From the IMG/VR virus record IMGVR_UViG_3300028197_001695, positions 54,006 to 118,005 of that record: a stretch of DNA of 64,000 nt; one strand, given 5' to 3'. A program made the position numbers and the translations under genes. Below, piece after piece: positions 3,520 through 55,967 of this stretch. A model generated the notes under the pieces. That model had not been told where the DNA came from. It made no database searches and worked only from the letters and a program-made list of their open reading frames with translations. The first letter of the stretch is position 1. Each line of letters opens with the position of its first letter. The stretch is from a virus.

Positions 3520-3595
3520 TGGTGCGCCCGACCGGACTTGAACCGATAACCAAGGGTTTATGAGACCCCTGCTCTAACCATTGAGCTACAGGCGC
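3520..3595 (-). tRNA. tRNA with CAT anticodon, probably tRNA-Ile2 (lysidine); CCA encoded
   Basis: Cloverleaf GCGCCTG..GCTCAATGGTTAGAGC..GGGGT-CTCATAA-ACCCT..GTTCAAGT..CGGGCGCACCA; C4-G69 and C5-G68 pairs match the known TilS determinants. Confidence 0.9.
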
Positions 3596-5005: not shown

Positions 5006-5088
5006 TAGCTCTGGAGGGGATCGAACCCTCACGATCTAGGATCAACGGATTTTAAATCCGCAGCGTCTACCAATTCCGCCACAGAGCC
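5006..5088 (-). tRNA. tRNA-Leu(TAA)
   Basis: GGCTCTG..GGCGGAATTGGTAGACGC..GCGGA-TTTAAAA-TCCGT, long variable arm, GGTTCGATCCC; no encoded CCA. Confidence 0.92.
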
Positions 5089-9434: not shown

Positions 9435-9442
9435 CATAAGGT

Positions 9443-15486: not shown

Positions 15487-16229
15487 ATTGTTGCTGTCCC
15501 AGCTTTACTGACAACAATGCTACAGCAAGTCTGAGCGTAGTCAATAGCTGAATCCATGTCTTGATTAAATAAATAATTAGTCGCGAAAGCAGTAAGGAAA
15601 GTATCTCCAGCACCACTCACATCCCTTACTTGAGCCACAGATTTTAAAGGGTATTTCTTTCCCCTGAACCTACACCCGTTACTCCCTAAAGTAACAATGA
15701 GGTTTTCCATCCCTATACCTTTAAATCCATTCTCCTTATATTCCTTTTCGTTAATTTTGATAAAATCAAACGAATTGGCCCATTTAGGGTTATATTTCTT
15801 TTTTGTATCTAAGAAAGACAATTGAGAGTTATCTGCAATATATTTTAAATCTCTGTCTGTCAGGTATCCCTTGTTATAATCAGAAACTATTACAGCGTCA
15901 TAAGACCACACGCTTGCTTCGCGCAACTTTAATTTATTAATCTCTTCATACTCATCTGAATCAACCCGCAAAAACATTTGATTAGAATTGGAGTCAATGT
16001 ATCTAACCTTCGCTCCAGTGCTTTGATTGCTTTTAATATCTACTTCTGCTTTTTCGCCTAAATTGTTAAGGCAAGCAAGAACATTTCTATGGACGTTTGA
16101 AGCCATACCCATGAAAGTAACTGAGTTCTCCTGCTTGAAAACAGGAACTGGAGCTTCTGGGCATAATCTATCAGCAGACCCATAAGTAAAAATATCTAAG
16201 CAGGACTCTCCGATAATTAATATTTTCAT
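15483..16229 (-). CDS. Heptose-7-phosphate kinase (HldE/RfaE domain I, PfkB family)
   Basis: IGESCLD, RLCPEAPVPV, VSDYNKGYL, DVSGAGDTF. Confidence 0.88.
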   Translation of the reverse strand: MKILIIGESCLDIFTYGSADRLCPEAPVPVFKQENSVTFMGMASNVHRNVLACLNNLGEKAEVDIKSNQSTGAKVRYIDSNSNQMFLRVDSDEYEEINKLKLREASVWSYDAVIVSDYNKGYLTDRDLKYIADNSQLSFLDTKKKYNPKWANSFDFIKINEKEYKENGFKGIGMENLIVTLGSNGCRFRGKKYPLKSVAQVRDVSGAGDTFLTAFATNYLFNQDMDSAIDYAQTCCSIVVSKAGTATI

Positions 16230-16600
16230 TTTTGTGAATCTCCTTTTTGGATTCTATAAGAATCATATTCAAAATGTTGAGTGCTAACTTCAAAAACTTT
16301 AGAATCCTCTAGAGCTATAAGCTTGTGAGGAATACATGGTCGCAAATGAACAGTGTCCCCCTCATTTAATTCAACAACCTTGTCTCCTGCATCACTCAAG
16401 TCATAATACTTCAAAAGCAATGCTCCTTCTATAACAGCCCAAGTTTCCTCTTTCTTGATATGATAATGCATAGAAAATTCAGCCCCCTTGTTGAACTTCA
16501 AAATCTTACCACAATACAAGTCATTATTTGTGATCCAAACTTCTTCCCCCCATCCTTTAGGGTGTTTTTGGACTTTTGAAAATACAGGCTCTAACTTCAT
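16226..16600 (-). CDS. Cupin (sugar isomerase/epimerase-like)
   Basis: KGWGEEVW, FSMHYHIKKEETW, PHKL. Confidence 0.75.
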   Translation of the reverse strand: MKLEPVFSKVQKHPKGWGEEVWITNNDLYCGKILKFNKGAEFSMHYHIKKEETWAVIEGALLLKYYDLSDAGDKVVELNEGDTVHLRPCIPHKLIALEDSKVFEVSTQHFEYDSYRIQKGDSQK

Positions 16601-16606
16601 TGACTA

Positions 16607-16634
16607 ATTTTAGCTAGAATACATGAAAATTCAA
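16607..16634 (-). promoter_or_regulatory. sigma70-like leaderless promoter for the heptose operon
   Basis: TTGAAT-16-TAAAAT-6 nt-ATG(16600). Confidence 0.65.
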
Positions 16635-38878: not shown

Positions 38879-39193
38879 CTATTTTTTTAAGAATTTATCA
38901 GGATTCTTTTCAAACTTCTTCGCTAATGCAATTACCCCGTTTATTATCTCTGGAGCTACTACTCCAACAATACCGTAAGAAATAGCCTTAATAAAATCAC
39001 TTATGGGAGCATCTTGCAAAACGAACCATAGAATTCCTGATAGGATAGCCGCAGCTACAACATTCCTCAAAAAAGACTTCACTGAAACATTGCCTTTGTA
39101 TGTCAGCATACGAGCAATCATGCCAGATGCACCAATTACAGGGATAACCCACCCACCATCTAAAAATTCTCTTATTAGATTTTTAAAATCCAT
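38879..39193 (-). CDS. Multi-TM membrane protein, holin-like (start revised to ATG 39193)
   Basis: About 3 hydrophobic segments and a basic C-terminus; GTGTAA 10 nt upstream (39204-39209). Confidence 0.55.
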   Translation of the reverse strand: MDFKNLIREFLDGGWVIPVIGASGMIARMLTYKGNVSVKSFLRNVVAAAILSGILWFVLQDAPISDFIKAISYGIVGVVAPEIINGVIALAKKFEKNPDKFLKK

Positions 39194-39241
39194 GTAAAAT
39201 ACATTACACCAAAAAATGTTTTTTGTGTATCTTATTTTAAG

Positions 39242-40462
39242 ATGGGTAAACATCGGAAAGACCTTACGGAAGCGAAAGCTTTTGCTGAAAAATATTGTAA
39301 TCCAGAAGATAGTAAAATCATCTCTGACTTAGACCGTCATGCAAGAGAAACAGCATGGGCTTTATTACAAAAAATTAAGCATTTAGAACAAAACTCTTGT
39401 GTTTGTGACGAGTGTGGTTCTGAAGTAGAAGACGAACCGGAAGAAGAGGTTAAAGTTGAAAAAAATAAAAACCAAGAAGTGAAGGCTGAAACCCCTGAAA
39501 CTTCTACTATGGACAAGCTATCTGAAATAGCTGAAAAGAATAAAGATATTTTAGATAAAGCTGCGAAAGGCACAGCGGCTGTAGCAGCGGCTGGAGCGAC
39601 AACTCAAACCGCAAGTGCAGCTACTGGGTTAACTGCTTTTGTACAAGAAACAGTTCAAAAAGTAGGGGCAATTGGAATGGCTGGCACTATGTCTATAGGT
39701 AGTGGAGCCTACTTCCAAGCAAAAACCACCAAAGAAAAGGGGACTGAGATAGCTGTCGTAGCAGAGCAAGAACATAACGTATTTTCAAATTTAAATGACT
39801 TTACTGAGACAACAATCGGATTCCAACCTTTTGGTGGTGTTACCGAAGCTATTGTAGAATATGCCGAAAAAGGTTATGGAGATGTTGTGGGTACGTCTGA
39901 AGAAGGCTACGAAGGAGGAGAAGGTGAAGAATCTGGTGGCGAAGAGGGAGAGGGCGAATCGTCAAATGAAGAAGCTTCTAACGAGGGAGAAGGAAATGAA
40001 GGCGAACCTACAGAAGAAAACAATGAAGAAGGAGAAGGAGAAGGGGAAGGAAAGGCCGTTAAAGAAGAAGAATCTGTAGAAACCGAAGAGGAGACAGAAG
40101 AAGAAAACGAAGGGGAAGAGACTGAAGAATCAGAAGAGGAATCTGAAGAAGAAGGAGAAGAGGAGGAACCCAAAGAAGAGGAGTCCGAAGAGGAATCCGA
40201 AGAGGAATCCGAAGGGGAATCCAAAGAAGAGACCGAAGAAGAGACCGAAGAGGAGGAGTCTGAAGATGAGGGAGAAGAAGTGGAGGAAGAATCTGAAGAG
40301 GGTGAGCCTGAAGAAAAAGAGGAGACTGAAGAACAGTCGGAAGAGGGCGAAAAGAAAAAAACAGATATTGAGAATTCAGAAGAAACATTCGAACTAGAAG
40401 AAGATGATCAAGTCACTCAAGTCCCTGATGTGATTAAACTCCCTAACATGATAAGAAAATAA
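39242..40462 (+). CDS. Protein with CxCxxC motif, Ala/Gly hydrophobic segment and very Glu-rich C-terminal half
   Basis: Translation; GTGTAT 11 nt upstream (39225-39230). Confidence 0.75.
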   Translation: MGKHRKDLTEAKAFAEKYCNPEDSKIISDLDRHARETAWALLQKIKHLEQNSCVCDECGSEVEDEPEEEVKVEKNKNQEVKAETPETSTMDKLSEIAEKNKDILDKAAKGTAAVAAAGATTQTASAATGLTAFVQETVQKVGAIGMAGTMSIGSGAYFQAKTTKEKGTEIAVVAEQEHNVFSNLNDFTETTIGFQPFGGVTEAIVEYAEKGYGDVVGTSEEGYEGGEGEESGGEEGEGESSNEEASNEGEGNEGEPTEENNEEGEGEGEGKAVKEEESVETEEETEEENEGEETEESEEESEEEGEEEEPKEEESEEESEEESEGESKEETEEETEEEESEDEGEEVEEESEEGEPEEKEETEEQSEEGEKKKTDIENSEETFELEEDDQVTQVPDVIKLPNMIRK

Positions 40463-40467
40463 TTATT

Positions 40468-40659
40468 ATGGAAGATTTATTTGAAAAAATACTCGCTCCT
40501 TACATGGGGTCAATGCCTGAGTTCATTATTTCTATCTTGGGTTTGCTAGGGACTCTTTCTTATATTGTCCCTGAAAATAGTAAGCTGGGTAGGTTATTAG
40601 GTAAGTTGACGGGGAATCTAACTAAACTTAAAAACTTTATACTAAAAAAGAAGAAATGA
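40468..40659 (+). CDS. Small single-TM protein with Lys-rich tail
   Basis: FIISILGLLGTLSYIV; KKKK C-terminus. Confidence 0.65.
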   Translation: MEDLFEKILAPYMGSMPEFIISILGLLGTLSYIVPENSKLGRLLGKLTGNLTKLKNFILKKKK

Positions 40660-41489
40660 AGCGCACACTCATAACTTTACTCTCAATTATTTCCGTAGCT
40701 AAATCTGCTATTATTACCTCTGTAGAAGGAAATGTATTCCTAATCAACCCTACAGAAAACCCTAATATCAACCCTGTAGTCAATATCCAAAGACCCATCC
40801 AGATCAGCAATGAGGAAGTTGTAGATATAACTGAAAGCGAAGATAAAAAAGAAGATTCAATTATTCCTTGGGATGCAGACGAAGAGGAAATTTATGATTT
40901 TTATGATGCTCCTAATTGGGATTTTTCAGAATCAGACTTGAAAGAGTTAGATCGAGATTCTGCTATCACTAGCATATTGACTATAACAGATGCCTTAATA
41001 CTTGAAGACAGTCCCTCTTATTCAAATATCGAGATTGGAGATGGGTTTTCAGTAACATTAAAGTCTACAGATTTTACTTTTCAAAAAAGCAATGGTTTCA
41101 CTGGAGTAAATGATGATGATAATGTATATTCAGTTTTAAATATAACTGAAGGGTCTAGTATGTATGCCATGTTTACTTCAATTGGTCTAAAGGTAAATGT
41201 AGATTCAACTAGCAGTTTGACTCTACGGGGAGTTGGAGACCCAATCAATAGTCAAATAGAAAGATCTATCGTTAATTTGTCTCCAAACGCGCAGCTCACT
41301 CTAGATTCAATAGAGGAGTTTTCAGAACAGGGTGATGATATTTATTTGAATGGCGTATCGTTCTCCCAAAACCCTTCTATCTTGAAATTTAATGGAACTA
41401 CTGCGACCGCTATTCCAGAAGCTTACTCAGCCCTGCTAAATGCTTTGCCTATAATTTTACTTTTAAGACGGAGGAATAGATTTAATTAA
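40656..41489 (+). CDS. Secreted protein with PEP-CTERM-like C-terminal sorting signal
   Basis: Signal peptide MKRTLITLLSIISVAKSA; C-terminus AIPEAYSALLNALPIILLLRRRNRFN (IPEx + hydrophobic helix + RRR). Confidence 0.75.
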   Translation: MKRTLITLLSIISVAKSAIITSVEGNVFLINPTENPNINPVVNIQRPIQISNEEVVDITESEDKKEDSIIPWDADEEEIYDFYDAPNWDFSESDLKELDRDSAITSILTITDALILEDSPSYSNIEIGDGFSVTLKSTDFTFQKSNGFTGVNDDDNVYSVLNITEGSSMYAMFTSIGLKVNVDSTSSLTLRGVGDPINSQIERSIVNLSPNAQLTLDSIEEFSEQGDDIYLNGVSFSQNPSILKFNGTTATAIPEAYSALLNALPIILLLRRRNRFN

Positions 41490-41734
41490 TCAAAAAGTTC
41501 TCTCTCTAGTTTCCTGAAGCGAGCATCTGAATGCCAAACCTCATCTATCTGAGGGGTGTAAACCCCTTCTTCAGTCTGAATCGGTTGACCCGCCTTGAGC
41601 TTTAATGAAGACGGTTGATATATGTTCAAAGTCGTCGTTTTCGGATTTGAGACGCTTCCGCAAGAGGTCAGCCCGATCAGAGGAGTTACTATCGCCAGCA
41701 GCCCGTAATTCTTCAATTTCGTTAATGAGTTCAT
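41486..41734 (-). CDS. Small lipoprotein (o-spanin/Rz1-like candidate)
   Basis: Basic N-terminus, hydrophobic core, lipobox LTSC; starts inside the upstream ORF in another frame. Confidence 0.6.
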   Translation of the reverse strand: MNSLTKLKNYGLLAIVTPLIGLTSCGSVSNPKTTTLNIYQPSSLKLKAGQPIQTEEGVYTPQIDEVWHSDARFRKLERELFD

Positions 41735-41837
41735 TTTTTATGTTTCTATGTTGATTTTTTATTTCAAAAAAAGCCAATCTATTCCTTAATTCAAGGTAAA
41801 GCTGTAGGCTCTTAGCTAGAGTTTTAATTAAAGACAT
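41571..41837 (-). CDS. Helical coiled-coil protein overlapping the lipoprotein gene (Rz-like candidate; start revised to ATG 41837)
   Basis: MSLIKTLAKSLQLYLELRN..., 164-nt overlap with 41486-41734. Confidence 0.5.
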   Translation of the reverse strand: MSLIKTLAKSLQLYLELRNRLAFFEIKNQHRNIKNELINEIEELRAAGDSNSSDRADLLRKRLKSENDDFEHISTVFIKAQGGSTDSD

Positions 41838-41847
41838 TATTCTTATT

Positions 41848-42648
41848 CTATATACACTCCAAAACCTGTTTCCACTCCATATCTCCAATCACAGACGTTA
41901 ACTTTGTGATATCTGCTTGAGTGAATTTTTGATATTGCCCTTTTAGTTTTTCTGGCATCGCGATCTGTTTCACTTTCGCTCCAGAGTTTTCTGCCATTTT
42001 ATCAGCAATAGCTTTAAAAGATATGGAATTGCCAGTACCAACATTGAAGATACCAGAATTATCATGATGGAGCATCCTATAATGCACCTCACAAATATCT
42101 TCCACATGGACAAAGTCTCTACTTGCTTTTCCTCTAAATACTTTGATCTCCCCATTTTCTTGAACTTCGTTAATGAATTTTGTAATAGGGCTAGCTTGAT
42201 CCCCTTTATGCTCTTCATGAGGTCCATACACATTAAAGTAACGGAACCCTTGATAGGGATGTTGCTCGTTCAAAAGCCAATTGTCAAACATATATTTACT
42301 ATACGCATAAGGGCTAAGAGGAACACAAAATTGATCTTCTTTAAAAGAGTCTGCTATGCCATATACCGAAGCACTGCTAGCGTATTGGAATTTAATGTCC
42401 ATATTGGCGCATAGCTGGTAAAGAGTGCCAGAGAATATAAAATTTTCATTTAATATCTTTTTTAAGTCGGTTTCTGTGGTGCTTGAATTAGCTCCAAGGT
42501 GAATAACCGCATCAATACCACTCAGAGGAGGTAAACTATTTCCAAACTTAATATCGTAAGGAATGACCTCTATTCCTCTTTTCTCAAGATAAGGACAAAG
42601 GTTCTTGCCAATAAAACCTTCGCTACCAGTAACTAATACCCTTCTCAC
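41848..42648 (-). CDS. hldD: ADP-L-glycero-D-manno-heptose 6-epimerase
   Basis: TGSEGFIG, HLGANSSTTE, YASSASVYG, PLSPYAYSK, FRYFNVYGPHEEHKGDQAS, YQKFTQADI. Confidence 0.88.
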   Translation of the reverse strand: MRRVLVTGSEGFIGKNLCPYLEKRGIEVIPYDIKFGNSLPPLSGIDAVIHLGANSSTTETDLKKILNENFIFSGTLYQLCANMDIKFQYASSASVYGIADSFKEDQFCVPLSPYAYSKYMFDNWLLNEQHPYQGFRYFNVYGPHEEHKGDQASPITKFINEVQENGEIKVFRGKASRDFVHVEDICEVHYRMLHHDNSGIFNVGTGNSISFKAIADKMAENSGAKVKQIAMPEKLKGQYQKFTQADITKLTSVIGDMEWKQVLECI

Positions 42649-44400: not shown

Positions 44401-44428
44401 ATTGTAAGGGGAAATCTAGTTTTGTCAA
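44401..44428 (-). promoter_or_regulatory. sigma70-like leaderless promoter
   Basis: TTGACA-16-TACAAT-6 nt-ATG(44394). Confidence 0.8.
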
Positions 44429-46725
44429 CTAAGAAAACCCATTTCATCTAAATTTATTTTAGAGGCGTTTCCCGTCAACTCTTGACATATAAACTTATTA
44501 ATCTGGTCCTCGAAACGATCTTGGAAATCAACTAGGTTCTTAGAAGAACGAGCGAATTTCTTTAGAAAACTTAGTGTAAATAATACCTCTATATCGCTCA
44601 ATCTCAAATCTTCATTGATCTTCTGTATCTTATGATAAAGAATTCTAAATATGTCCTTTTTGCGAGCTTCATTTAATACTAAATTACAGTCAACTAGAGA
44701 TAATAATTCTTTAAAAATAGACGAGGTTGGAGACTCCTTGTCAGAGTTAAACCCCATTGATGAAGTGTCCTCTACTCCGCTAGTCACAAAAATTTTGACA
44801 TTAGAAAAGTCAGCTATATCTCCATTAGCCATTTGCAACTTCCCGTCCTTTAGTATTTGAGCAAATAAACTCTTAACAGACAAATGTAGCTTGTGGAAAT
44901 CGTCAATAATAATGACACTATTAGGATAGATATTAATCTTCTCACATAAAGAAGTGTTATTCATTATCTCTGGTAAGATTTTAAACTTAGCGAACTCATC
45001 TGAAAAATGAACTCCGCTGTAGCTTAAGATATTCACGCCACTCTTTTCCAGAGAGTCCTTCAAAGTCGAACAGAAAAAACTTTTGCCACTAGACTCAACT
45101 CCTGTAATACAATAAATGCTGGGAGCTGACCCTTTTTTATATATTCCATAATTAGATAGAGATATGGATTCGATAAGAGAATCAATAATTCTATTATTGC
45201 CTATAAACTTTTTCTTTAAACTCTCAGAGAGATCAGATAAAATTTTTGGCTTCCTCAGAGGGTTCTCCTTCTTTGAGAAGAAATCTTTAAGATGCTTCAT
45301 CCTAACTTCTGGAACTTCATCCTCCTTGTCTTCAGACCAGTCTGATAATTTTTCTGTTACAAATGATAATAATGATTCTGTCGAGGTTATATCTACATCG
45401 TTATCTTTTATTTGTTCTTGCAACTCTTTAAATGAAGTATCATTGCCCCAGTGGGAAACTTTCGCTTGCGCTCCACAATGATCAATTACGTCAATTGCTT
45501 TGTCTGGATAAAATTTATTTGGAAGATATTTTTCACAAAAAACAATAACATTGTCAATAAAGTTTTGAGTATAATTAACATTATGGAAGTCTTCGTAATA
45601 AGAGGTTATAGTAGGTAAAATTTCCTTCATCTGAAATTTAGAAGGCTCTTTGATAATAACCCTTTCAAAACGACGATCTAAAGCAGAGTCTTTTTTAATA
45701 GTGTTTGTATACTCGTTTATTGTAGTGGCTCCAATACAACTAATTGTGCCACGAGCAAGCTCTGGCTTGAGTATATTAGAAGCTTCTAGGGAGTTTTCTG
45801 TAGTTCCTCCAGCACCAACAAGAGTATGGACCTCGTCTATGAATAGAATAATATTTTCATACTTCTTAACTTCATCTACAAACTTCTCCAGCCTCTCTTC
45901 AAACTGACCACGATACTGTGTTCCAGCGACCATACTAGACAAACTAAGAGAGTAGATAACTTTATTCGCGATAAGCTCTGGAGCTTCACCATTTACAATT
46001 TTGGAAGCTAGACCCTCAATCAAAGAAGTTTTACCAGTTCCCGCTGGTCCCACTAAAATTGCGTTTGGCTTCTTCTTTCTGCAAAGAATAGTCGCTATCT
46101 CTGATATTTTGTCATCAAAGTCTACTATTTTATCAAATTCATGACGGGAGGCTTTTAAGTTTAAGTTTTCTGCGAACTGATCAAGGATTGGGTTTTCATC
46201 AAACATCCCAATCCATTTGCCAACTATATCCATAGAAATATCATCAGCAAAAGAATACTCTGATTCTCCCTCTGGTGCTACTTCTTCTTCGTCTTTTATA
46301 AAACGAGTTATAGACTCCACCATTAGATCTCTATCTTGTTCCTCAAGAACCCCAGAGAAAGCCTTCGGAGTGAACCCTTCACTCAAGAAACAAAGCAAAA
46401 TAGCTTCTGTGCTAACGTAATCTAATTCAAACAGCTCCTTCTGAATAAACTTACATTCATTTAGTAATTTATTTAATTTAGTGGAATATTTAGTAGAAAC
46501 AATTTTGTTAGACTTCTTCTTCTCGATGACCTTTTTAGATGCAATAAACAAAGCTTCCCTACAAAAAGATTCTTCAAGAAATTTCTCACAAGACAAGCTT
46601 AGGTCACTAATAAATGAATGAAAAAAAACATCTATATCAACCTTATTTCTCCCAAGGAATTCGTTTAAATCTTGAGCACCCTTAAGGATGCACTTTAATT
46701 GTGGAGTAAGTGGTAAGTCGTTCAT
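44425..46725 (-). CDS. clpC: ClpA/ClpC-type Hsp100 AAA+ unfoldase
   Basis: Clp-N-like region, GPAGTGKT, AGTQYRGQFEER, LFIDEVH, DSALDRRF, PDKAID, second NBD GVESSGKS, MGF loop. Confidence 0.85.
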   Translation of the reverse strand: MNDLPLTPQLKCILKGAQDLNEFLGRNKVDIDVFFHSFISDLSLSCEKFLEESFCREALFIASKKVIEKKKSNKIVSTKYSTKLNKLLNECKFIQKELFELDYVSTEAILLCFLSEGFTPKAFSGVLEEQDRDLMVESITRFIKDEEEVAPEGESEYSFADDISMDIVGKWIGMFDENPILDQFAENLNLKASRHEFDKIVDFDDKISEIATILCRKKKPNAILVGPAGTGKTSLIEGLASKIVNGEAPELIANKVIYSLSLSSMVAGTQYRGQFEERLEKFVDEVKKYENIILFIDEVHTLVGAGGTTENSLEASNILKPELARGTISCIGATTINEYTNTIKKDSALDRRFERVIIKEPSKFQMKEILPTITSYYEDFHNVNYTQNFIDNVIVFCEKYLPNKFYPDKAIDVIDHCGAQAKVSHWGNDTSFKELQEQIKDNDVDITSTESLLSFVTEKLSDWSEDKEDEVPEVRMKHLKDFFSKKENPLRKPKILSDLSESLKKKFIGNNRIIDSLIESISLSNYGIYKKGSAPSIYCITGVESSGKSFFCSTLKDSLEKSGVNILSYSGVHFSDEFAKFKILPEIMNNTSLCEKINIYPNSVIIIDDFHKLHLSVKSLFAQILKDGKLQMANGDIADFSNVKIFVTSGVEDTSSMGFNSDKESPTSSIFKELLSLVDCNLVLNEARKKDIFRILYHKIQKINEDLRLSDIEVLFTLSFLKKFARSSKNLVDFQDRFEDQINKFICQELTGNASKINLDEMGFLS

Positions 46726-49283
46726 TTTTTATTCAGATCTCTAAGCTTCATCATGATTTTAGTATCAATCACCCTAGCCGAAGTTATAAAACTACTACCA
46801 CGGCCTTTACTAGCATTCAAGATCAAAATGCACTCTTTCGATATTTTATATTGTGAAAGGAAGTCTGAAAGAGTATTAGATCTAGAATTATCCATCATTA
46901 AAAATTTAGATGAGCCTGTATTGTCTGAAACATTAATCATCATATACTTATTACCGCTTTGAGAGATATTTGTGAAGAAATCTTTTACTTGGCAAGCTAC
47001 CTTGAAACTCGTTCTTTCTGAGATCTCATCTATTTCTCTTAGACTACTCATGGAACCGAATTCATCTTCAAAGCAGTCTCTCAAATCGAAAGAGTAACTA
47101 TAACCCAATAAAGTATTTTCATACCACCAATTACAAAACTTCTGGAATGGCTTATTCTTGTCGAAGATCTCTTTGTAATTCTTAAAATTTTTCTTAAAGG
47201 TATTAAACCTAGATTCTTTCATTATTGGGCGACCATCATCAGCAATAGCGTTCACCCTTATCACTTCCGATATTGCTTTTAAAACATCATCACCAAACCT
47301 CTCTTTAAATAGATTAAAATTTCTCTTCTCCCTGTCTGTCAATATGTTGAAAGCTTGAGCCTCTAAAACTAACCTGCCTCTTTTTTCTGTAGACTCGTCC
47401 ATAGATCCAGCTTGAATCAAAGCAGCTAGCACTGAGATATTAATTCCACAATTTTTAGCTGCCATGAATACATCATATTTGCTTTCAAACCCGTCTGACC
47501 CTTTGAAAGATAAAAGACCTTCTTTAGATTTAGAAGAAATACCTTTGATTCCATTAAGGCCATATCTAATGTTGTCACCTTCAATAGAAAAGTCCATTTT
47601 TGATTTAAATAGGCTTGGAGGTAATAATCGAACACCAAAGTAATCTAACTCTTGATGGACAGAAGCAACAACTTCAAGAGGCTCTGGGTCAAACTCAGAA
47701 GACTCAAGGACAGACAAGAAGAACTCTCTAGGATATTTGTACTTCAAATAAACTGTCTTAGCTGCCAATTCAGCATAAGCGAAACTGTGAGACTTGTTGA
47801 ATGAGTAGTCAGCAGAAGCTTGTAGGGCAGTCCAGTAGAAATCACTGATCTGACTATCTAAACCTAGAGCTTGTGCAGCATCATAAATTCTATCTTTCCA
47901 CTTCGGCATTTCCTCAACCTTCTTCTTACCAACAATGCGACGAAGAGTTTCTGCCTCTTCTAGAGTCAAACCGAAAACCTTGTTAGCAATCTGCATCAAC
48001 TGCTCTTGATACAAGATAACGTTTTTAGACCAAGATAGGATTTCATCTAGCTCTTTATGAAGGTTGCTTGATTGAGGGGCTTGTTTCTGTCGGACATATT
48101 CGTCAACAAATTGTAAAGCCCCCGGTCTAGCAAGAGCTACAACGTCAGAAAGTTCATTGAGATTGTCAGGCTTTACGTCTTGGCAAACCCTGAAGTTTGT
48201 ATCTGCTGAAATCTGGAAGAGACCTTCTGGATGATTATAGGTTTGAAGCTTCTCATATATGAATGGGTCATTAGGGTCTATTTCATCTATGCCAATGCCA
48301 ATCTTGTCGCAAGTCCTGTGAGCGATTGTTAATGTCCTAAGACCAAGAATATCGAACTTAACCATGAGGTCAGCAACATCGTGCATATTGTAACCTGTTA
48401 CTAAGTCTCCATCTTTAGTTTTTTGAAGAGGCACAACATCTCCTATTGATTGAGAGCAAATAGCAATGCCAGATGGATGGACTCCTGTGTTTTTAATTAG
48501 ATTCTCAATCTTCTTCGCATTAATAAAAGTCCTACTATGTTTTTTAGCCCAATTGTCGAGCTTCTCATTCTCTTCTCTCGCATTATCTAAAGAAGATACT
48601 TTGCCATGAAGTTTCGGAATCATGTCACTAACTGAATTAGCTTGGTCCTCTTTGGCTTCATCAAAATACTTGGTAGCCTCTCTAATGCAAAGCTTCGAAC
48701 TAAAAGTGTTGAAGGTTAAAATTTTTGCTGTCCTGCCCTTATGTTTTTCTTCAATGTATTGAATGACTCTCTGTCTTTGCTCATAACTGATATCTGAGTC
48801 AACATCAGGAAGTAGACTGCCAACAAGAAACTCTTTATTTCGTTTGTCGTAAACTTTTTTAGCACGACTCTTTGATACAAAACGTTCAAAGAACAAATTG
48901 TGAGGAATGGGATCAATATTAGTAACCCTAAGCAAATACAAAACTAAAGATCCAGCAGCAGAACCACGACCTGCTCCGGTGGGAATACTATTTTCATGGC
49001 AAAAGTTTAAAACATCCCAATTTAACAAAATATAATCTGTAAATCCAAGCTCTTCAAAAGTCTCTAGCTCTTGTTTGGCACGATCAAAATATTCTTTTTT
49101 ATTCTCATACTTTGTAATTCCTTTGTCCCGCAATCCTTTGCGGGTAAGCTCATACATAATTTCTTTAGTGGAGCTTTCTTCGCCAAGCCCAATACTCCTC
49201 AATACAGCTTCGCTGACAGAAGTCTTAGGTAATTCAACGCCAATAGGCTCACAATCGTCGTAAACAGAAAAATCTTTAAACAT
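46722..49283 (-). CDS. dnaE: DNA polymerase III alpha catalytic part (no PHP domain)
   Basis: GAGRGSAAGS, LFFERF, PDVDSD, GVHPSG, KFDILGLRTL, YSFNKSH, C-terminal OB fold. Confidence 0.93.
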   Translation of the reverse strand: MFKDFSVYDDCEPIGVELPKTSVSEAVLRSIGLGEESSTKEIMYELTRKGLRDKGITKYENKKEYFDRAKQELETFEELGFTDYILLNWDVLNFCHENSIPTGAGRGSAAGSLVLYLLRVTNIDPIPHNLFFERFVSKSRAKKVYDKRNKEFLVGSLLPDVDSDISYEQRQRVIQYIEEKHKGRTAKILTFNTFSSKLCIREATKYFDEAKEDQANSVSDMIPKLHGKVSSLDNAREENEKLDNWAKKHSRTFINAKKIENLIKNTGVHPSGIAICSQSIGDVVPLQKTKDGDLVTGYNMHDVADLMVKFDILGLRTLTIAHRTCDKIGIGIDEIDPNDPFIYEKLQTYNHPEGLFQISADTNFRVCQDVKPDNLNELSDVVALARPGALQFVDEYVRQKQAPQSSNLHKELDEILSWSKNVILYQEQLMQIANKVFGLTLEEAETLRRIVGKKKVEEMPKWKDRIYDAAQALGLDSQISDFYWTALQASADYSFNKSHSFAYAELAAKTVYLKYKYPREFFLSVLESSEFDPEPLEVVASVHQELDYFGVRLLPPSLFKSKMDFSIEGDNIRYGLNGIKGISSKSKEGLLSFKGSDGFESKYDVFMAAKNCGINISVLAALIQAGSMDESTEKRGRLVLEAQAFNILTDREKRNFNLFKERFGDDVLKAISEVIRVNAIADDGRPIMKESRFNTFKKNFKNYKEIFDKNKPFQKFCNWWYENTLLGYSYSFDLRDCFEDEFGSMSSLREIDEISERTSFKVACQVKDFFTNISQSGNKYMMINVSDNTGSSKFLMMDNSRSNTLSDFLSQYKISKECILILNASKGRGSSFITSARVIDTKIMMKLRDLNKK

Positions 49284-49897
49284 TACAAATTCATTTCTTT
49301 TTTAAGTGCAGAAAAAACCTTGAAGCACATCTTATTATCATATAAGGCATCATGCAACTTCTCTTCTTCAAACTCTATGCCAAAGAATTTAAGCAATTGG
49401 TTTTGAGAAACTCTCGACTTGAGGGATCGGTCATGGATTATCTTATACTGCCAACTCAACAAATCTTTCTTGGGCTTGTCGAGATCTTCTCTGTAAGCCT
49501 TGCCGAAGGCTCTAGTGTCATAAATTCGATTAAGATACGAATAATCAGGAGTTTCCCCCAACAACCTTTGCATGCAAGCCACCATGTAGACATCAAAGCC
49601 CAAAAGGTTCTGACCAACAATTTTATATTCTGGGTTAAATAAATCAACTTTAAAATCAGCCCAAACTTTCTTCAAAGGCTCCTTCCTCTCGTTATACTTA
49701 TCCCAACTGAAGCCTGTCAAATGCTCCACTTTTTTATTAATTTGTAGGTCTTTATGGCTAATATATCTATCGTTCTCTTTAATGACTCTATTGCCTTGGC
49801 AAATCAACCATGAAACTTGCCAAGTACGAGAAGAGTGCAAATTAAGACCCTCAGTCTCCGTGTCAAAGACTAAATATTTTTGATTATGTGGTAGCAT
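49283..49897 (-). CDS. DEDDh 3'-5' exonuclease (Pol III epsilon-like)
   Basis: FDTETEG, GQNLLGFD, LHDALYD. Confidence 0.88.
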   Translation of the reverse strand: MLPHNQKYLVFDTETEGLNLHSSRTWQVSWLICQGNRVIKENDRYISHKDLQINKKVEHLTGFSWDKYNERKEPLKKVWADFKVDLFNPEYKIVGQNLLGFDVYMVACMQRLLGETPDYSYLNRIYDTRAFGKAYREDLDKPKKDLLSWQYKIIHDRSLKSRVSQNQLLKFFGIEFEEEKLHDALYDNKMCFKVFSALKKEMNL

Positions 49898-50585
49898 CTT
49901 TATAAGACTCCCAACAGAACTCGTCTGAGCAGAAGTGATTTAAGTTTGGGTTTTGGAAGGTTGGAGTCCTACCTCCAGATCTATTACAAGCTGCTTTATA
50001 CATTTGTAAAGCAGCAAAGTCATCTTTGTCACGATGAAGTATCGTCTTAACAGTTTGAGTCTTAACATCAAGACTGTCAATAATAGATTTAATTTGGAAA
50101 TCAAAGGGGTGATTATTATCTTCGATAAAGTAAACCGGATCTAAGTCTTTAATATCTATGTGAGATAAGCCAAAATGAAATAAATTATTAAAGATATAAG
50201 AGTCGTAGAATGGGACGCACACTTTTAGATTCTTAAAATCAATTTTGTTATACTCAGATAAAATCAAAGAATTTCGGTCATTCAAAGAGGCGTTAGAATA
50301 CATCCTTTTCAAATCTCGTATTCCTTCGTTGTTTTTCGCAAAAAGAGCTAGCTTGCTAGGTTTTTCGCTGTAGTCCCCCTCTGTATTAAGAACAGATATC
50401 TTTAATCCAAAAACAAATGGAACCTCCTCCTCTTGAAAGAGCTTGTTAAATACTCTAAACCCATAAAAAGTGTCTTCAAGTAAAACAACCTTTCCTAATT
50501 GGTCGGTTTTAGCTATATCCAATATTTTCTCTGCGGTGAGAATAGACTTACCTACACTAAACTGACTCTTAAAAAGAGGGATCAT
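49884..50585 (-). CDS. Stand-alone PHP domain of Pol III alpha (metal ligands degenerate)
   Basis: FKSQFSVGKSIL..LEDTFYG..LALFAKNNEG aligns by eye with the DnaE N-terminus but lacks the HxH and TDH histidines. Confidence 0.75.
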   Translation of the reverse strand: MIPLFKSQFSVGKSILTAEKILDIAKTDQLGKVVLLEDTFYGFRVFNKLFQEEEVPFVFGLKISVLNTEGDYSEKPSKLALFAKNNEGIRDLKRMYSNASLNDRNSLILSEYNKIDFKNLKVCVPFYDSYIFNNLFHFGLSHIDIKDLDPVYFIEDNNHPFDFQIKSIIDSLDVKTQTVKTILHRDKDDFAALQMYKAACNRSGGRTPTFQNPNLNHFCSDEFCWESYKDATT

Positions 50586-50591
50586 GCAGGA

Positions 50592-50620
50592 ATTCTAAAG
50601 AAGATCACTCGTGTTGTCAA
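50592..50620 (-). promoter_or_regulatory. sigma70-like leaderless promoter for the polymerase operon
   Basis: TTGACA-17-TAGAAT-6 nt-ATG(50585). Confidence 0.8.
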
Positions 50621-51641
50621 ACGAAAAAGACGGGCAACCAGAATATTTTTTCTTCTCAATATGAGTCCCTACTCCTTCGTCGAGCATAACTTGTAAATTT
50701 TCTTTAACGTAAGACGACTTAATGAACTTGTCTTTTTCTCCAAGCAAATGGTAATACTCAAATGGAAACTTGAATGGACAGTGCCACATTAAATCTCCGT
50801 TCTTTTTTAATTGTCCTACGCGAGTAGCTCTGCCACAAACAATTTTACCAGCAAACCCTTCTTCCTTCGCTGGATACCCCTTATCCCAAGCAAGGCCACT
50901 AACCGCAGTATTGTGATTGAAATTATTGATTACCTGTTGAACATCAGTCAAAAAATATTCAAAACCTTCTAAGTCTAGTTCATCTAACGGCTCCATAGCC
51001 ATAAGACCTTCCCCGTTCAAGTCGAACTTTAAGAATAAGAACTCCATGCGTCTCTTCAAGTATTCTGGATACAAGTATTTAACAGCAAGACAATACATGT
51101 AATCCTGCATGTTGTCTGTATACTCCTTACCTTCAAAGATACTTTTTGAGGTTTTGAAATCTCGGATTATAGCTGTTTTTTTTCTTTTAAATAAAAATAG
51201 TTTATCTATAAAGCCTAGTATCCGATAATCCTTATCGCCTTCATTTACAGAGATGTCGAAATCTTTCTCAGAGATAGCTTCTGTAGGCTTCCCCTCTGTG
51301 TCCCCAAAGAAATCAAAATTCAGACCCTCAACTGTCATCTTGTTGATTAGGTCCATATTCTCAAAGTCGTCTATCTCATACTTTTTAGCGTAAGCTTCTA
51401 TCATCCTCTTAATCGGAGGACTAACATTTATATCTTGAGCTTTGATAATCGCTGTATAATGCTTCCTGTGTTTAGGATTACCTAAGTTCTCAAAAACAGC
51501 ATGGCAGATTGTCCCACGCAAAGATCCATGATTAGATTTATCTGGTAAGCGCAGATGATACTTGGCCCAATATTGCCAAGTACAAGTTTGCATTGTTTTT
51601 ATGCGAGAGGCTGAGAGAGGCTTATTTTTAGATTTCTCCAT
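50595..51641 (-). CDS. PD-(D/E)XK nuclease (RecB/AddB-like) (start revised)
   Basis: LSASRIKT..C.WQY, GTICHAVFE, GFIDKL..IRDFKTSK, C..CPF. Confidence 0.82.
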   Translation of the reverse strand: MEKSKNKPLSASRIKTMQTCTWQYWAKYHLRLPDKSNHGSLRGTICHAVFENLGNPKHRKHYTAIIKAQDINVSPPIKRMIEAYAKKYEIDDFENMDLINKMTVEGLNFDFFGDTEGKPTEAISEKDFDISVNEGDKDYRILGFIDKLFLFKRKKTAIIRDFKTSKSIFEGKEYTDNMQDYMYCLAVKYLYPEYLKRRMEFLFLKFDLNGEGLMAMEPLDELDLEGFEYFLTDVQQVINNFNHNTAVSGLAWDKGYPAKEEGFAGKIVCGRATRVGQLKKNGDLMWHCPFKFPFEYYHLLGEKDKFIKSSYVKENLQVMLDEGVGTHIEKKKYSGCPSFSFDNTSDLL

Positions 51642-52677
51642 AATGGAAGTCGTATTTTTTTTCAAACTTCCGTAAATTGGAAGTGAATGTTTTATTGACC
51701 CCACGTTTATTCATCTCTTTAGCGAAATCAATAACGTTAGCCATCGATTCATTATGTTTAACTGAGTCGCAATATTCAACATATTTATCTATTTGACCTT
51801 TATCCATGTCTCCAAAATCATTCTCTGGAGGAGGGGAAAAGAATACTTTGTCAAAATCAATTTGATCGCAGAGTTTAAATATAGACTTTATTGAGCCTTC
51901 AAATCCCCTGTTCGAACCTGAATTAAAATCATTATTAAACGCAATGATAATTTTATCTAAAGGTAAACTATGAAGTTTAGAAATGAACTTTGGTGAAACG
52001 TTCAAGCCGAAAGAAACAAGTACATTCTTAATCCCAGCGTTAAATAAAGAAATGCAATCTCCAATAGATTCTACCACATATACGCAACGATGTTCTTCAA
52101 TCGCATCAGCGACATCATTTATACTATAATAAGGATAAAACCAATCAGAACACCTCCCATTGTGTAGCCATTTGGGTCTAGGGTCATCTGTTACCTTACG
52201 ACCTGAAAACCCGTGTATCTTACCATCAGAGCGCATAATAGGGAATATAACTCTCTGATACATTTTGCCAGACATAGCTAATCCACATTTAAATTTTTTA
52301 AGAGTATCTTCTGAGATCCCTCTGTTAAAATAAAAATCATAATGAGGCAATAGTCTATTTAAACAAGTATCTGGGTATGTTTTCTCCTCACTCAAAAGAT
52401 GCTTTTTTCTGGCACGTTCATATATATTTACACCATCCGTCTTCAAATAAGAATTTAAAACATTCTTATCATTTGTATTAAGAGTTTTTTGGAGTAAGGC
52501 TTTAAAAGGAAGAAAAATAGAATCCTCTACATAGTCTTTCCAAACTCCAGTGTCTTTATAAATTTGAAGGGCCGTAGTATTACTCCCAGACCTGTAGACT
52601 GCGCTAGTTCTCCAATAAGAACCATGATCTTTGAGTTTATACCCTAAGTCCTCCAAAATAGATCTGTAATCAGTCAT
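51628..52677 (-). CDS. dnaG: DnaG-like TOPRIM primase
   Basis: RVIFPI..GFSGRKV..PKWLH, VVESIGD, IIIAFNND; located next to the helicase. Confidence 0.8.
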   Translation of the reverse strand: MTDYRSILEDLGYKLKDHGSYWRTSAVYRSGSNTTALQIYKDTGVWKDYVEDSIFLPFKALLQKTLNTNDKNVLNSYLKTDGVNIYERARKKHLLSEEKTYPDTCLNRLLPHYDFYFNRGISEDTLKKFKCGLAMSGKMYQRVIFPIMRSDGKIHGFSGRKVTDDPRPKWLHNGRCSDWFYPYYSINDVADAIEEHRCVYVVESIGDCISLFNAGIKNVLVSFGLNVSPKFISKLHSLPLDKIIIAFNNDFNSGSNRGFEGSIKSIFKLCDQIDFDKVFFSPPPENDFGDMDKGQIDKYVEYCDSVKHNESMANVIDFAKEMNKRGVNKTFTSNLRKFEKKYDFHYGEI

Positions 52678-54221
52678 TGCGAAAGAACCATTGGAATATC
52701 GTCATTGCCCTCGTTGGTCTCTAGCGAAACATCAACGTTATTAACAGAGTTTACAATATCTTGAAGGTCTCCTCTTTCTTCGATTCTAAAATTTTGAATA
52801 TTCAAGTTTATAAAGTTCTTTCGGTTAGAACCATCTGGCATCTCAACAGCATTGATAGCACGGAGAGCGTCTTTGCCTAAGTGTCGAGCCTTAAGGTTTA
52901 CTAGCTTATGAGTACCGAATCGATCTCCATCTTGGTGAATTTCATCTGCAACCTTTGTCCTCAACAAAAACAAATGAGAGCAGAATTGAGTAATGCCATC
53001 AGAAAGTGAAACAACGCTTTCATCGTCAACAATAGAGTCTGCGTTACGGTTACTAGTAATTCCAAGTCTATTCGCTTGAACAGAAGTCATCATTGACACG
53101 CAAGGCTTCCCATCAAAACACAAGTCTCTGTGAATAGTCTGCTTGAACAAATGAACCATCGAGGCTACTTGCTGCCAACCTTCATTCTTACCAAGGTTAT
53201 TGAAGTCTGTCTTAATGTAATCAAAACTAAAAATCATTCTGTTACCCCTGCCAACTTTAGAGTAGTAATACCTTTTTAGATAAGAGCACATCTCTTCCGC
53301 AGACATGCCAGCAACATTCACATAATAAAACTGCATATTGCCAGCCTTAATCTTATCCCAAGTTCTACGTACCCTCGCCACAACCTCTTCAACAGACCAG
53401 TCCTTATAGCTAGAAGTTCTCCACTTTCCACTTTGTAGGAGGTAAACGGGGATACCACTCATCGCAGAACATTGACGGAAAGTAAGCTCTTCTTCACTCA
53501 TCTCCCCATTGTCAAAGTGTAAGACGGGGATGTTATATTTAGCTCCAGTTCTTGTAGTATAGTCCATGCAGAACTGAGTTTTTCCCACGCCAGAACGAGC
53601 TACAATAACAGAGATATTACCCTCAAGAAGAAGAGATCCGTAAATCTCGTTTATTCTTTCGTGTGGACCCATTAATCCAGATTCTTCAACAGGATTATTC
53701 CCTCTATCTTCCACTAAATCTTCCATCATGTCAAAAAGATTAACTGGTCCATCGTCAGAGAACTCAAACTCTTTGATATTTTTATTATAGATTTCGTCAG
53801 CTTTATCTATAATTTCTGAATATTTTATGTCAGGATCGACCTTTTTAACATAAGAGGCTACGTCCCTTGCGGAGCGATAAATCTCTCTACGCGCAGAGAA
53901 CTTTTTCAATTCCTTTACCGAAGAAATAAATATATCTTCTGTTATCTTATGATAGACAAGGGAGCGAATATATTCTGGGAGATCAATACTATCTGGGAAA
54001 CTGACCTTGAGCTGTTCTAACCTTGGTATGAGGATGGTGTCATCTATAGTCTCTGTGTTATTCAGAGCATTTCGGATGAGCTTGAAGATAGATAGATTTA
54101 CAACAGAATCATCGCTAAAGAAATCTTTTTCATTTAAGAACACTGAAACTTCAGCCCACTTGTGAGGGTGCTGGAGAAGACCTTTCAAAACTGTCTTCTC
54201 TAAGTCTAAGCTAGCTATCAT
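52674..54221 (-). CDS. dnaB: Replicative DnaB-like helicase
   Basis: ARSGVGKT, GEMSEEEL, FDYIK, QANR. Confidence 0.88.
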   Translation of the reverse strand: MIASLDLEKTVLKGLLQHPHKWAEVSVFLNEKDFFSDDSVVNLSIFKLIRNALNNTETIDDTILIPRLEQLKVSFPDSIDLPEYIRSLVYHKITEDIFISSVKELKKFSARREIYRSARDVASYVKKVDPDIKYSEIIDKADEIYNKNIKEFEFSDDGPVNLFDMMEDLVEDRGNNPVEESGLMGPHERINEIYGSLLLEGNISVIVARSGVGKTQFCMDYTTRTGAKYNIPVLHFDNGEMSEEELTFRQCSAMSGIPVYLLQSGKWRTSSYKDWSVEEVVARVRRTWDKIKAGNMQFYYVNVAGMSAEEMCSYLKRYYYSKVGRGNRMIFSFDYIKTDFNNLGKNEGWQQVASMVHLFKQTIHRDLCFDGKPCVSMMTSVQANRLGITSNRNADSIVDDESVVSLSDGITQFCSHLFLLRTKVADEIHQDGDRFGTHKLVNLKARHLGKDALRAINAVEMPDGSNRKNFINLNIQNFRIEERGDLQDIVNSVNNVDVSLETNEGNDDIPMVLSQ

Positions 54222-54439
54222 TCGCCCACCTCCTGCTGTTGGAATATTTCAACCAATTTAGTGAGAGCCATGTCAACACAAGCATTGTCTGTTTTACTGG
54301 AGAAGGTAGGATGGCCTGATTCATTTATGTAAAATAAAAAGAATCCTTTGTTTCCTCCACTAGGAGAACCAGTACAGTCGAACAATTTAGTAAGGATGCT
54401 TTGAGGTAAAGTATTTTCTGTTTTATCAAAAAGATTCAT
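54218..54439 (-). CDS. Hypothetical protein
   Basis: ORF with overlaps at both ends. Confidence 0.6.
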   Translation of the reverse strand: MNLFDKTENTLPQSILTKLFDCTGSPSGGNKGFFLFYINESGHPTFSSKTDNACVDMALTKLVEIFQQQEVGE

Positions 54440-54843
54440 ATTACGTCTAACTCGTTTAGTAGATCTTCATTCAGAGTATCTTTCTCTAGTATTCTTACAA
54501 GTCTAATTTTGTTAATATCGCAAAAATATTCCTTTTTCTCGTCTCTTTGCAATTGTGACAGAAAATTCTGCCTTGAGTTTGAGTGAAAAAATTTATTAAA
54601 TTTGTAATGCTGGTTGCCATCAACTTCTATTGCAAGTTTTTTATTCGCGTTATAAAAGTCTATAGTCATTCTAGTTCCAAGAACAGGGAACTCTTCAAAA
54701 ACTACATCTGAAATCCAGTGTGAGTATAAAAGGTCTTTTACTTTTTTTTGGATCTTACTCCGACACTTTTTATCCCAGTCAATTAAATATTTCGATGAGT
54801 TTTTTAGCTTCTGTTCACGACCAGTTGTCGTAAGAAAAATCAT
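54436..54843 (-). CDS. DUF559/Vsr-like endonuclease
   Basis: IDFY..LAIEVDGNQHY..DEKK..IRLVRI. Confidence 0.75.
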   Translation of the reverse strand: MIFLTTTGREQKLKNSSKYLIDWDKKCRSKIQKKVKDLLYSHWISDVVFEEFPVLGTRMTIDFYNANKKLAIEVDGNQHYKFNKFFHSNSRQNFLSQLQRDEKKEYFCDINKIRLVRILEKDTLNEDLLNELDVI

Positions 54844-55967
54844 ACAAAAATATTCTCAGCAATAAATAAGTGCATCCCCTTAGTGATTTCCTCACTGTTC
54901 TCTAAAAGGTCATACAGAGCTTTCATCCCCTGATACTTCTCTTGAACTTCGACTCCCCTATCAGCAAGATACTTGATAAGTTCAGCATCAATCTTAAACC
55001 AAGAAGCAGACTTCTCAATAAAGTTCCACATTAAAAGCATCTCAATGATCTCACGCTCAATCCAAATAGACTTACCATCAGATCGACCATGCTTGATTGG
55101 GTAACGAATACGCATACCAGTACTTTCATTCGTAGACTTCTGAATATGAACTTTCGCGTAATGACCTATAATAGAATTCTCTGGGCTTGGCCTTGCCTTT
55201 TGATCTTGTAGAATTAGATCAGATTGGTTTCTTCTTTCGAAGTTTATAATCCAGTCTGGATAGTGAAGAGCTGCATTGCCACCGCTAGAATTAGTTTGGT
55301 TGTTTGGATCACTAGGAGCATATTGATTAGTCTTTATAGTTGACCGAACCTGAGAGACCATAATACACATATGACCAAATTTACCCATTCCAAGACTAAC
55401 TCGCTTTAAGAAATCTGAAGTAAGAGATGCACCTGCTGCAACTTTTGCTGCATCACTGGTAGTCTTCTCTAGATCAGATTTAGGAAGCAAGCCATCCATA
55501 CTGTCGATGACAATGCAAAATTTTTCTCTATCTGGATTATTTCTTAGTAATTCTCTAAGACCATCAAAAACTGTGTCGTAAATGTGACACTCCCAAACAA
55601 GGCAAGTGCCTAAATCCCAGTCTTCTGGGTCAGTCACAAATTTCAATCCAGAACGCTTTTGGATGTCTGCTGATAAACGACCCTCCGCTTTGATATAAAG
55701 ACCCTTGGTCTTCTCTACCGTCTCAAGCATATTCTTCATAACATGAAGAGCTTCATTTGTTTTACCACCCTCGTTACAACCAATGAAACGCTGGAGTCCA
55801 GCTCCAAGACCTCCACCCACAAACTGATCTAGAATTAGGGAGCCAGTCGAAACTATGTAAGGCTTTGCAGTCTCTTCATAGTTGTAGTGGAATTCTTTAT
55901 TACTCTTAAAAAACTTCGACATAAATTGCGAAGTCCCAACTTTTTCTTTTGCACTTTTCTTACTCAT
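54840..55967 (-). CDS. recA: RecA/UvsX-like recombinase
   Basis: STGSLILD, GCNEGGKT, IVIDSMD, VSQVR, SSGGNAALH. Confidence 0.85.
   Translation of the reverse strand: MSKKSAKEKVGTSQFMSKFFKSNKEFHYNYEETAKPYIVSTGSLILDQFVGGGLGAGLQRFIGCNEGGKTNEALHVMKNMLETVEKTKGLYIKAEGRLSADIQKRSGLKFVTDPEDWDLGTCLVWECHIYDTVFDGLRELLRNNPDREKFCIVIDSMDGLLPKSDLEKTTSDAAKVAAGASLTSDFLKRVSLGMGKFGHMCIMVSQVRSTIKTNQYAPSDPNNQTNSSGGNAALHYPDWIINFERRNQSDLILQDQKARPSPENSIIGHYAKVHIQKSTNESTGMRIRYPIKHGRSDGKSIWIEREIIEMLLMWNFIEKSASWFKIDAELIKYLADRGVEVQEKYQGMKALYDLLENSEEITKGMHLFIAENIFV

Follow-up and report, generated by a model that had tools for sequence, protein, structure and literature searches.

This study concerns a three-gene unit in a stretch of phage DNA which, at its full length of 64,000 nucleotides (nt), is referred to here as the window and which covers bases 54006-118005 of the 118,005-bp IMG/VR virus record IMGVR_UViG_3300028197_001695 (CheckV completeness 89%). 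The genes of the unit are called A, B and C, and the last of them, gene C (40656..41489, plus strand), encodes a predicted secreted beta-helix protein of 277 amino acids (aa) with a PEP-CTERM-derived tail. Judged by homology and phylogeny, gene C now resides in the phage but descends from a cellular gene, one that codes for a small secreted beta-helix PEP-CTERM protein of a paralogous family of marine Akkermansiaceae (Verrucomicrobiota), whose members exosortase, an enzyme of the host, normally sorts. With gene C the phage probably places a protein of its own in or on the envelope of the infected cell, although one of the three signature residues is missing from the sorting tag.

Cellular relatives and origin of gene C

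A phmmer search with protein C against 1.84 billion representative sequences returned 61 relatives. The non-phage ones are mostly of about 210-250 aa, with a signal peptide, a start motif of the form I/V-V/I-W-T-G and an end in which [VI]PEP, a helix and RRRK follow one another, as in TAIPEPSS...LALILRRRK. Homology to cellular proteins of about 230 aa spans residues 70-275 of C, tail included, with matches reaching an expect value (E) of 1e-65. In NCBI these relatives are named as PEP-CTERM proteins of Akkermansiaceae or Verrucomicrobiaceae (including TMED86) metagenome-assembled genomes (MAGs), on contigs of up to 591 kb, and the guess in an earlier sequence-only reading of this DNA that Verrucomicrobia would hold the cellular relatives of C was right. 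Among ten relatives scanned, six passed PF07589 and seven passed TIGR02595, the curated cut-offs being 20.7 and 16 bits, respectively. A homologue was also present in 35 of the 301 genomes sampled from the family of one homologue-bearing genome, the best four being 57-59% identical.

Proteins of about 230 aa such as OUV09725.1 and MDB4687671.1 share with C, in register, a Thr/Ala-rich run, [VI]-P-E, a helix of about 15 residues and an Arg/Lys cluster, and for this cellular family, as for C, the sorting enzyme is encoded elsewhere, in the cell. Unlike the family, C is encoded by a virulent-type phage of 118 kb with 37% guanine plus cytosine (GC), and the second Pro of its motif is replaced at a hypervariable site. 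It differs further in its Ile/Leu/Ser-rich helix, in an insertion of 48 residues that is predicted to be disordered, and in its operon with the phage-only genes A and B.

The closest cellular copies have tails of the form VVPEL...LLGRRRK, without the second Pro. Such PEL-tailed homologues (loci L050-L053) were found in four Akkermansiaceae species genomes, all of which encode an exosortase, and like C they are missed by TIGR02595. They differ from C in being cellular, in lacking the N-terminal insertion, in their Gly/Ala/Leu helix and RRRK end, and in having a fixed Leu where C has its hypervariable residue. In three Akkermansiaceae genomes the closest homologues of C (9439-10185, minus strand, at L060; 9631-10317, plus strand, at L061; 9684-10370, plus strand, at L062) lie in the same context, and the PEL-tailed homologues are ordinary chromosomal genes. 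From their sizes and end sequences we take the genes on one side of them to be groEL and dnaK. On the other side two large secreted proteins of 1302 and 727 aa are encoded.

In the tree, the phage copies and a 227-aa metagenomic form make up one clade with a support of 100 and a long stem, and this phage clade is nested within the cellular clade with a support of 98-99. A clade of the phage copies with the PEL group was not rejected by the approximately unbiased test (p 0.17), and the PEL group is a possible sister lineage of the phage copies. One phage copy bearing IPEP lies inside the phage clade and is not basal in it; the second Pro may have gone in a single loss or in more than one. When viral contigs were scanned with the 227-aa form (P0121), only proteins of the 277-aa type were returned.

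Architecture and predicted fold of protein C

Protein C can be divided into four parts. Residues 1-20 (40656..40715, plus strand) form a Sec-type signal peptide with MKR, a hydrophobic core and AKS-A, as judged by inspection, by Kyte-Doolittle hydropathy (1.97) and by alignment, in which the cellular homologues have their own signal peptides at this place. Residues 21-68 (40716..40859, plus strand) are the Asn/Pro/Glu-rich insertion, which has a predicted local distance difference test (pLDDT) score of 36-46 and is present neither in the cellular homologues nor in the 227-aa metagenomic form that groups with the phage clade. A right-handed parallel beta-helix is predicted for residues 69-250 (40860..41405, plus strand) with pLDDT above 90. 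The tripartite tail (residues 251-277; 41406..41486, plus strand) consists of T-A-I-P-E, 15 hydrophobic residues (A256-L270, with a 19-residue Kyte-Doolittle mean of 1.64) and RRRNRFN. The Sec signal peptide and the PEA-variant tail, with its IPEA and RRRNR, had both been noticed from the sequence alone, and both were upheld. Among the 208 ORFs (open reading frames) of at least 60 aa in the 118-kb record, C is the only one with a hydrophobic stretch and a basic cluster at its C-terminus.

The AlphaFold model of C, built from an alignment of 30 rows, has a mean pLDDT of 80, exceeding 90 at residues 70-250; it consists of a succession of short strands, with the C-terminal helix at its end. Foldseek searches of PDB and BFVD with this model gave nothing at E<=0.001. 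The best neighbours in VIA-align are right-handed beta-helices, namely tapirin (Z 9.6), the TibA passenger (8.8), Awp1 (8.8), Pet (8.6) and Ag43 (6.5), a range of Z that is common for beta-solenoids. Over 120-133 residues tapirin (4wa0), TibA (4q1q), Ag43 (7kob) and Pet (4om9) share the right-handed parallel beta-helix with C at a root-mean-square deviation of 3.0-3.7 A. Unlike these beta-helical adhesins and autotransporters, C has a much shorter domain, has no beta-barrel translocator and shows no sequence relationship to them. The model supports a short adhesin-like beta-solenoid, which is a statement about the fold only and not about function. TibA is a beta-helix adhesin that is heptosylated by TibC.

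The C-terminal tail as a derivative of a PEP-CTERM signal

Several of the features by which PEP-CTERM proteins are recognised were found in C. An N-terminal signal peptide is carried on the same protein, as judged from inspection and alignment. The hydrophobic stretch of about 14 residues that should follow the motif is supplied by A256-L270, its length and hydrophobicity being kept in the relatives, and the expected five or so basic C-terminal residues are represented by RRRNR, followed by FN, with Lys/Arg clusters in the relatives. Tail homology to accepted members is in register, both in the alignment and in the phmmer matches, which run to residue 273-275. An alignment of 30 sequences has five invariant columns, among them those of P254 and E255 of C, which stand opposite the P and the E of PEP. 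On this homology the tail of C is a true evolutionary derivative of a PEP-CTERM signal.

Two viral loci (L026 and L035) read IPEP, and they give sub-threshold local matches to models of the PEP-CTERM class (E 6e-6 to 0.13), with 20-26 bits for XDP1 and, at L035, 13.2 bits for TIGR02595. One protein with a PES tail (P0132) passes TIGR02595. Together with the PEL tails in exosortase-encoding genomes, these cases speak for a tolerance of PE-x.

Conservation and selection among phage copies

In marine metagenomes, 169 close homologues of C with 74-87% identity were found, and gene C is carried by 36 IMG/VR loci. More than 150 phage copies, at 70-100% identity, have an intact gene, and they retain G-x-T-x-T-A-I-P-E, the helix and the basic cluster. 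IPE is kept in 119 of 120 proteins, mostly as T-A-I-P-E, and is followed by a variable residue, 15-17 hydrophobic residues and a Lys/Arg cluster. Across 26 full genes the motif codons for Gly, Thr, Thr, Ala, Ile and Glu show synonymous changes only, the residues being fixed, and the site after IPE is hypervariable, taking eight different residues. Purifying selection acts on the signal peptide, the beta-helix domain, T-A-I-P-E, the helix and the basic cluster. A tblastn search of the GenBank phage collection with C gave no match, and nothing was returned by a first scan of genome contigs with C.

Exosortase and the candidate host

No exosortase was found in the window, as the sequence-only reading had already stated, and none in the rest of the phage record. 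An exosortase above the Pfam cut-off was found in all ten tested Akkermansiaceae genomes carrying cellular homologues of C, and at a stringent genome-wide E-value TIGR02595 gave 12-22 hits in each of five Akkermansiaceae genomes. One Akkermansiaceae exosortase gene lies between ORFs of 392 and 265 aa, presumably a glycosyltransferase and an EpsI-type gene, which they resemble by eye. The gene phylogeny and one MAG assignment, that of a phage-type copy (P0090) filed under an Akkermansiaceae MAG, point to Akkermansiaceae as the candidate host. In Akkermansia muciniphila, 23 PEP-CTERM proteins and an EpsH-like gene have been reported, and nine of the proteins were detected by mass spectrometry (PMC4960237).

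Possible roles of protein C

In our judgement the chances are about even that C is exported by the Sec pathway, anchored by its C-terminus, handed over to the exosortase of the host and displayed on the cell surface. During infection Sec would export C, and the C-terminal helix would hold it in the inner membrane, the basic cluster lying on the cytoplasmic side and Pro-Glu facing the periplasm. Recognition by the host exosortase, as of the host paralogues, would follow, and the enzyme would pass C to the cell surface or the exopolysaccharide layer, where the adhesin-like beta-helix would alter the surface of the infected cell. Masking or replacement of a host surface protein, superinfection exclusion and altered aggregation would be among the possible effects. 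With the second Pro relaxed, [TA]-A-I-P-E and the helix would be what the enzyme recognises.

A number of observations weigh against this route to the surface. The second Pro of Pro-Glu-Pro has been described as 'nearly invariant' in the PEP-CTERM sorting domain (Haft 2006, PMC1569441), and it is replaced in the tail of C, which reads I-P-E-A and so lacks the PEP tripeptide. Of 120 proteins, 118 have A, T, S, V, I, F or M after IPE, and P stands there at just two of 33 viral loci. Such a replacement could mean that recognition by the exosortase has been lost, and no experiment defining the residues that an exosortase needs was found in the literature searched. The hidden Markov model (HMM) check that had been suggested with the sequence-only reading turned out negative, neither PF07589 nor TIGR02595 matching the whole of C, its last 40 or its last 30 residues at E<=10. 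Likewise, no sorting-signal match to C or to the tail alone was obtained from Pfam, NCBIfam and PHROGs, and a six-frame search of the whole record with PF07589 found nothing. Against a family-tail profile made from 40 canonical cellular tails, the tail of C scored 4.2 bits, a score reached by four of 2000 shuffles, and the median of the phage tails was -3.6 bits.

Two further points of this kind concern the host and expression. The gap between the GC of the phage (37%) and that of the homologue loci in the candidate genomes (48-54%) is large. Gaps of this size are nothing out of the ordinary among large virulent phages that encode their own replication machinery, T4 and Escherichia coli being an example. 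Short contigs of the B and C regions were found in two metatranscriptome libraries, covering parts of B, C and the neighbouring lipoprotein region, and two contigs in one library are identical to the window. They are a weak hint of possible transcription of the C region, as contigs in RNA libraries may come from DNA and cannot prove transcription, its strand or its level.

The silence of the curated models on C may be ascribed to the Ile/Leu/Ser-rich helix and the replaced second Pro, and the low family-profile score indicates that the tail is a diverged derivative, identified by its ancestry and not by its own sequence. Since the second Pro is not conserved in the phage clade, recognition of C by an exosortase is something that we infer.

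The loss of the second Pro at a site that is now hypervariable, the want of HMM support for the tail, the move of the helix composition from Gly/Ala/Leu to Ile/Leu/Ser/Phe, and the small membrane and lipoprotein genes that surround and travel with the cassette would also suit a C that is only a tail-anchored membrane protein. It is a lesser but real possibility that C has kept a plain inner-membrane anchor, is no longer an exosortase substrate and stays in the periplasm, perhaps together with B, a 124-aa membrane protein and a lipoprotein encoded nearby. However, a plain anchor would need no strictly conserved G-x-T-x-T-A-I-P-E outside the helix, kept while synonymous changes accumulate, and the chromosomal PEL-tailed homologues persist in exosortase-positive genomes.

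The only phage- or virus-encoded protein of this kind that came up in the literature searched was one with a PEP-CTERM domain in a Dehalococcoides viral element, mentioned in passing (10.64898/2026.09.15.751708). What is distinctive here is the Verrucomicrobial source, a PE-x tail that the models miss, and a fixed three-gene operon. The PEP-CTERM/exosortase pathway of bacteria is still poorly characterised experimentally. If the phage depends on exosortase, the natural series of tails (IPEP, IPEA, IPET, IPEV and others) on one passenger protein would offer ready substrates for working out residue requirements. The displayed protein would add to the evidence that phages change the surface of infected cells with secreted proteins derived from the host, and the gene gives a sequence-based lead to Akkermansiaceae (Verrucomicrobiota) as the host of an abundant uncultured lineage of marine phages of about 100-120 kb. 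The results also illustrate that curated sorting-signal models miss tails that are diverged but homologous.

Genes A and B

Gene A (39242..40462, plus strand) encodes a protein of 406 aa with an N-terminal part, a Gly/Ala-rich core and a Glu-rich tail. Asp and Glu account for 136 of the 406 residues (one third), with 93 Glu in the tail of 177 residues, and the earlier description of this protein as hyper-acidic thus stands. The hydrophobic segment once attributed to it is an Ala/Gly/Thr-rich stretch whose 19-residue Kyte-Doolittle mean peaks at 0.86, so that protein A has no clear membrane helix. Conservation is found at Cys19, Cys53, Cys55 and Cys58 in the N-terminal part, four residues that may bind metal, and at core residues about 140-217, the family having an invariant Gly-rich core M-S-I-G-S-G-A-Y-F-Q-A-K. 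The Glu-rich tail varies among phages from almost absent to about 170 residues and ends in a conserved ELEEDDQVTQVP-like motif. All 83 homologues of protein A are uncharacterised and come from marine metagenomes or phage-sized contigs; no Pfam or NCBIfam family was found for the protein, and the AlphaFold model of residues 1-230 (pLDDT 42) was unusable.

Gene B (40468..40659, plus strand) encodes a single-pass membrane protein of 63 aa with one helix (hydropathy 1.72), in agreement with the sequence-only reading. Its N-end is acidic, an invariant Met-Pro-Glu (P17-E18) stands right before the helix and Val-Pro-Glu right after it, and the C-end is Lys-rich. By the positive-inside rule protein B is predicted to have the same topology as a PEP-CTERM tail. 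The likeness of its Pro-Glu, helix and basic end to the tail of C was seen post hoc and is a lead only. Across most related phages protein B keeps 90-100% identity, against 76-85% for C, and it is more conserved than either neighbour. It matched no Pfam, NCBIfam or PHROGs family and no sorting-signal model, and the ESM Atlas gave only viral hypothetical clusters with non-significant scores.

Genes A and B are separated by 5 nt, and the start codon of C and the stop codon of B overlap within ATGA, so that the three genes form one operon; they adjoin one another in every locus that spans them. No relative of A or B was found beside the cellular homologues of C at the loci inspected. A and B are putative co-expressed partners of C; nothing indicates that either of them exports it.

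The features of B bear on a further explanation, in which C with its PE-x tail, and possibly B, would be poor or dead-end substrates that act as a decoy or blocker of the exosortase. Display of host PEP-CTERM proteins, phage receptors for example, would be reduced, and progeny would be protected or other phages excluded. It is precisely the putative processing site that has come under weaker constraint, the recognition residues on its flanks being invariant, and the strongly conserved B, with its P17-E18, helix and Lys-rich C-end, is translationally coupled to C. Against this, the case for a decoy is purely inferential, the PEL and PES tails of cellular proteins point to PE-x as a normal kind of substrate, and B is matched by no sorting-signal model, its likeness having been noticed post hoc, so that we hold this explanation to be unlikely. 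It is similarly doubtful that A, B and C together are a device aimed at the host exosortase, in which C, as a pseudo-substrate whose cleavage site is relaxed, and B, as a free-standing mini-protein of like topology, would occupy or re-programme the enzyme, withhold host surface proteins and/or display the phage beta-helix, possibly decorated through the sugar pathways of the phage. If real, such a device would make a protein-sorting enzyme the target of a phage counter-measure or exclusion system.

The locus and its genomic context

As the sequence-only reading had described, A, B and C are three plus-strand ORFs headed by GTGTAT and flanked by minus-strand genes on both sides. The GTGTAT (39226..39231, plus strand) was read in the sequence 10 nt 5' of the ATG of gene A. 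Its mirror, GTGTAA (39210-39205, minus strand), stands in front of the ATG at 39193 with which the divergent gene probably begins. The two hexamers share the 48-bp spacer between gene A and the divergent gene, each about 10-11 nt before a start codon. A sigma-70-like promoter was looked for on the plus strand and was not found.

The upstream side of the cassette holds genes for structural proteins, recognised by weak PHROG matches, and the downstream side a nucleotide-sugar epimerase, a ClpB-like ATPase and DNA polymerase III alpha. When loci L003, L004, L015, L024 and L026 were compared with positions 2210-46725 of the window, the flanks were found to vary among related phages, the structural block, a heptose operon and a lipoprotein pair swapping places. 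The heptose operon lies directly upstream of A-B-C at L003 and L015, and the lipoprotein pair lies upstream of A at L026. The cassette, standing beside different blocks in related phages, thus remains intact inside a rearranging region.

The divergent neighbour (38879..39253, minus strand, the true start probably being the ATG at 39193) encodes the small membrane protein of 124 aa, which has two hydrophobic peaks, a Lys-rich C-end and a holin-like shape, and which usually travels with the cassette. On the other side, an 82-aa lipoprotein with the lipobox LTSC is encoded at 41486-41734 (minus strand), and in another frame its gene runs across the 3' half of an upstream ORF (41571-41888, minus strand; about 88-105 aa). 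This conserved pair also usually travels with the cassette. Overlapped spanins have a similar layout, but a membrane helix is missing from the upstream ORF, whose hydropathy does not exceed 0.70.

Small membrane proteins with basic C-ends and a lipoprotein gene that overlaps an upstream ORF in another frame are what a module for lysis or envelope disruption could contain, with the 124-aa protein as the holin, B, the lipoprotein pair as the spanins and C as one of the parts. We consider such a module very unlikely, for neither A, B, C, the 124-aa protein nor the lipoprotein matched an endolysin, holin or spanin, or any family at all in the case of the last two, in Pfam, NCBIfam and PHROGs (a scan that did not include the ORF at 41571-41888), the spanin-like pair is without the membrane helix just mentioned, and C is homologous to host surface proteins and not to lysis proteins.

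An assembly chimera or a decaying captured host fragment, for which the filing of P0090 under an Akkermansiaceae MAG might speak and which had been named beforehand as a finding that would overturn the sequence-only proposal, is hardly credible and is refuted as far as GC, synteny, recurrence and selection data go: the cassette has the GC of the rest of the phage (about 37-38%) and is flanked by phage genes, its gene order is the same in at least 30 IMG/VR viral contigs, a stretch of 3.9 kb is near-identical in marine or seawater metagenomes of at least six studies, and C is intact in its many copies and bears signatures of purifying selection.

The claim that the surroundings of the cassette are rich in sugar-related genes was borne out in part; domains of sugar-nucleotide enzymes, glycosyltransferases or methyltransferases were found in ten of 20 sampled ORFs. 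That the phage re-coats its host with a phage glycoprotein is speculation; the phage has sugar genes, but nothing links them to C. The nucleotide-sugar epimerase (41848-42648, minus strand) is two genes from C. Other candidate genes of an ADP-heptose pathway lie at 14705-16634, and no heptosyltransferase was identified in the phage, so that heptosylation of C after the manner of its fold neighbour TibA is a lead and no more.

A replication set at 44425-55967 (minus strand) comprises a ClpB-like double AAA ATPase, DNA polymerase III alpha, a PD-(D/E)XK nuclease, a DnaG-like primase, a DnaB-like helicase and a RecA-like protein, a set that fits a virulent lifestyle and a GC content remote from the value of the putative host. 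Two tRNA genes, for Met (CAT; 3520-3595) and Leu (TAA; 5006-5088), are also encoded on the minus strand.

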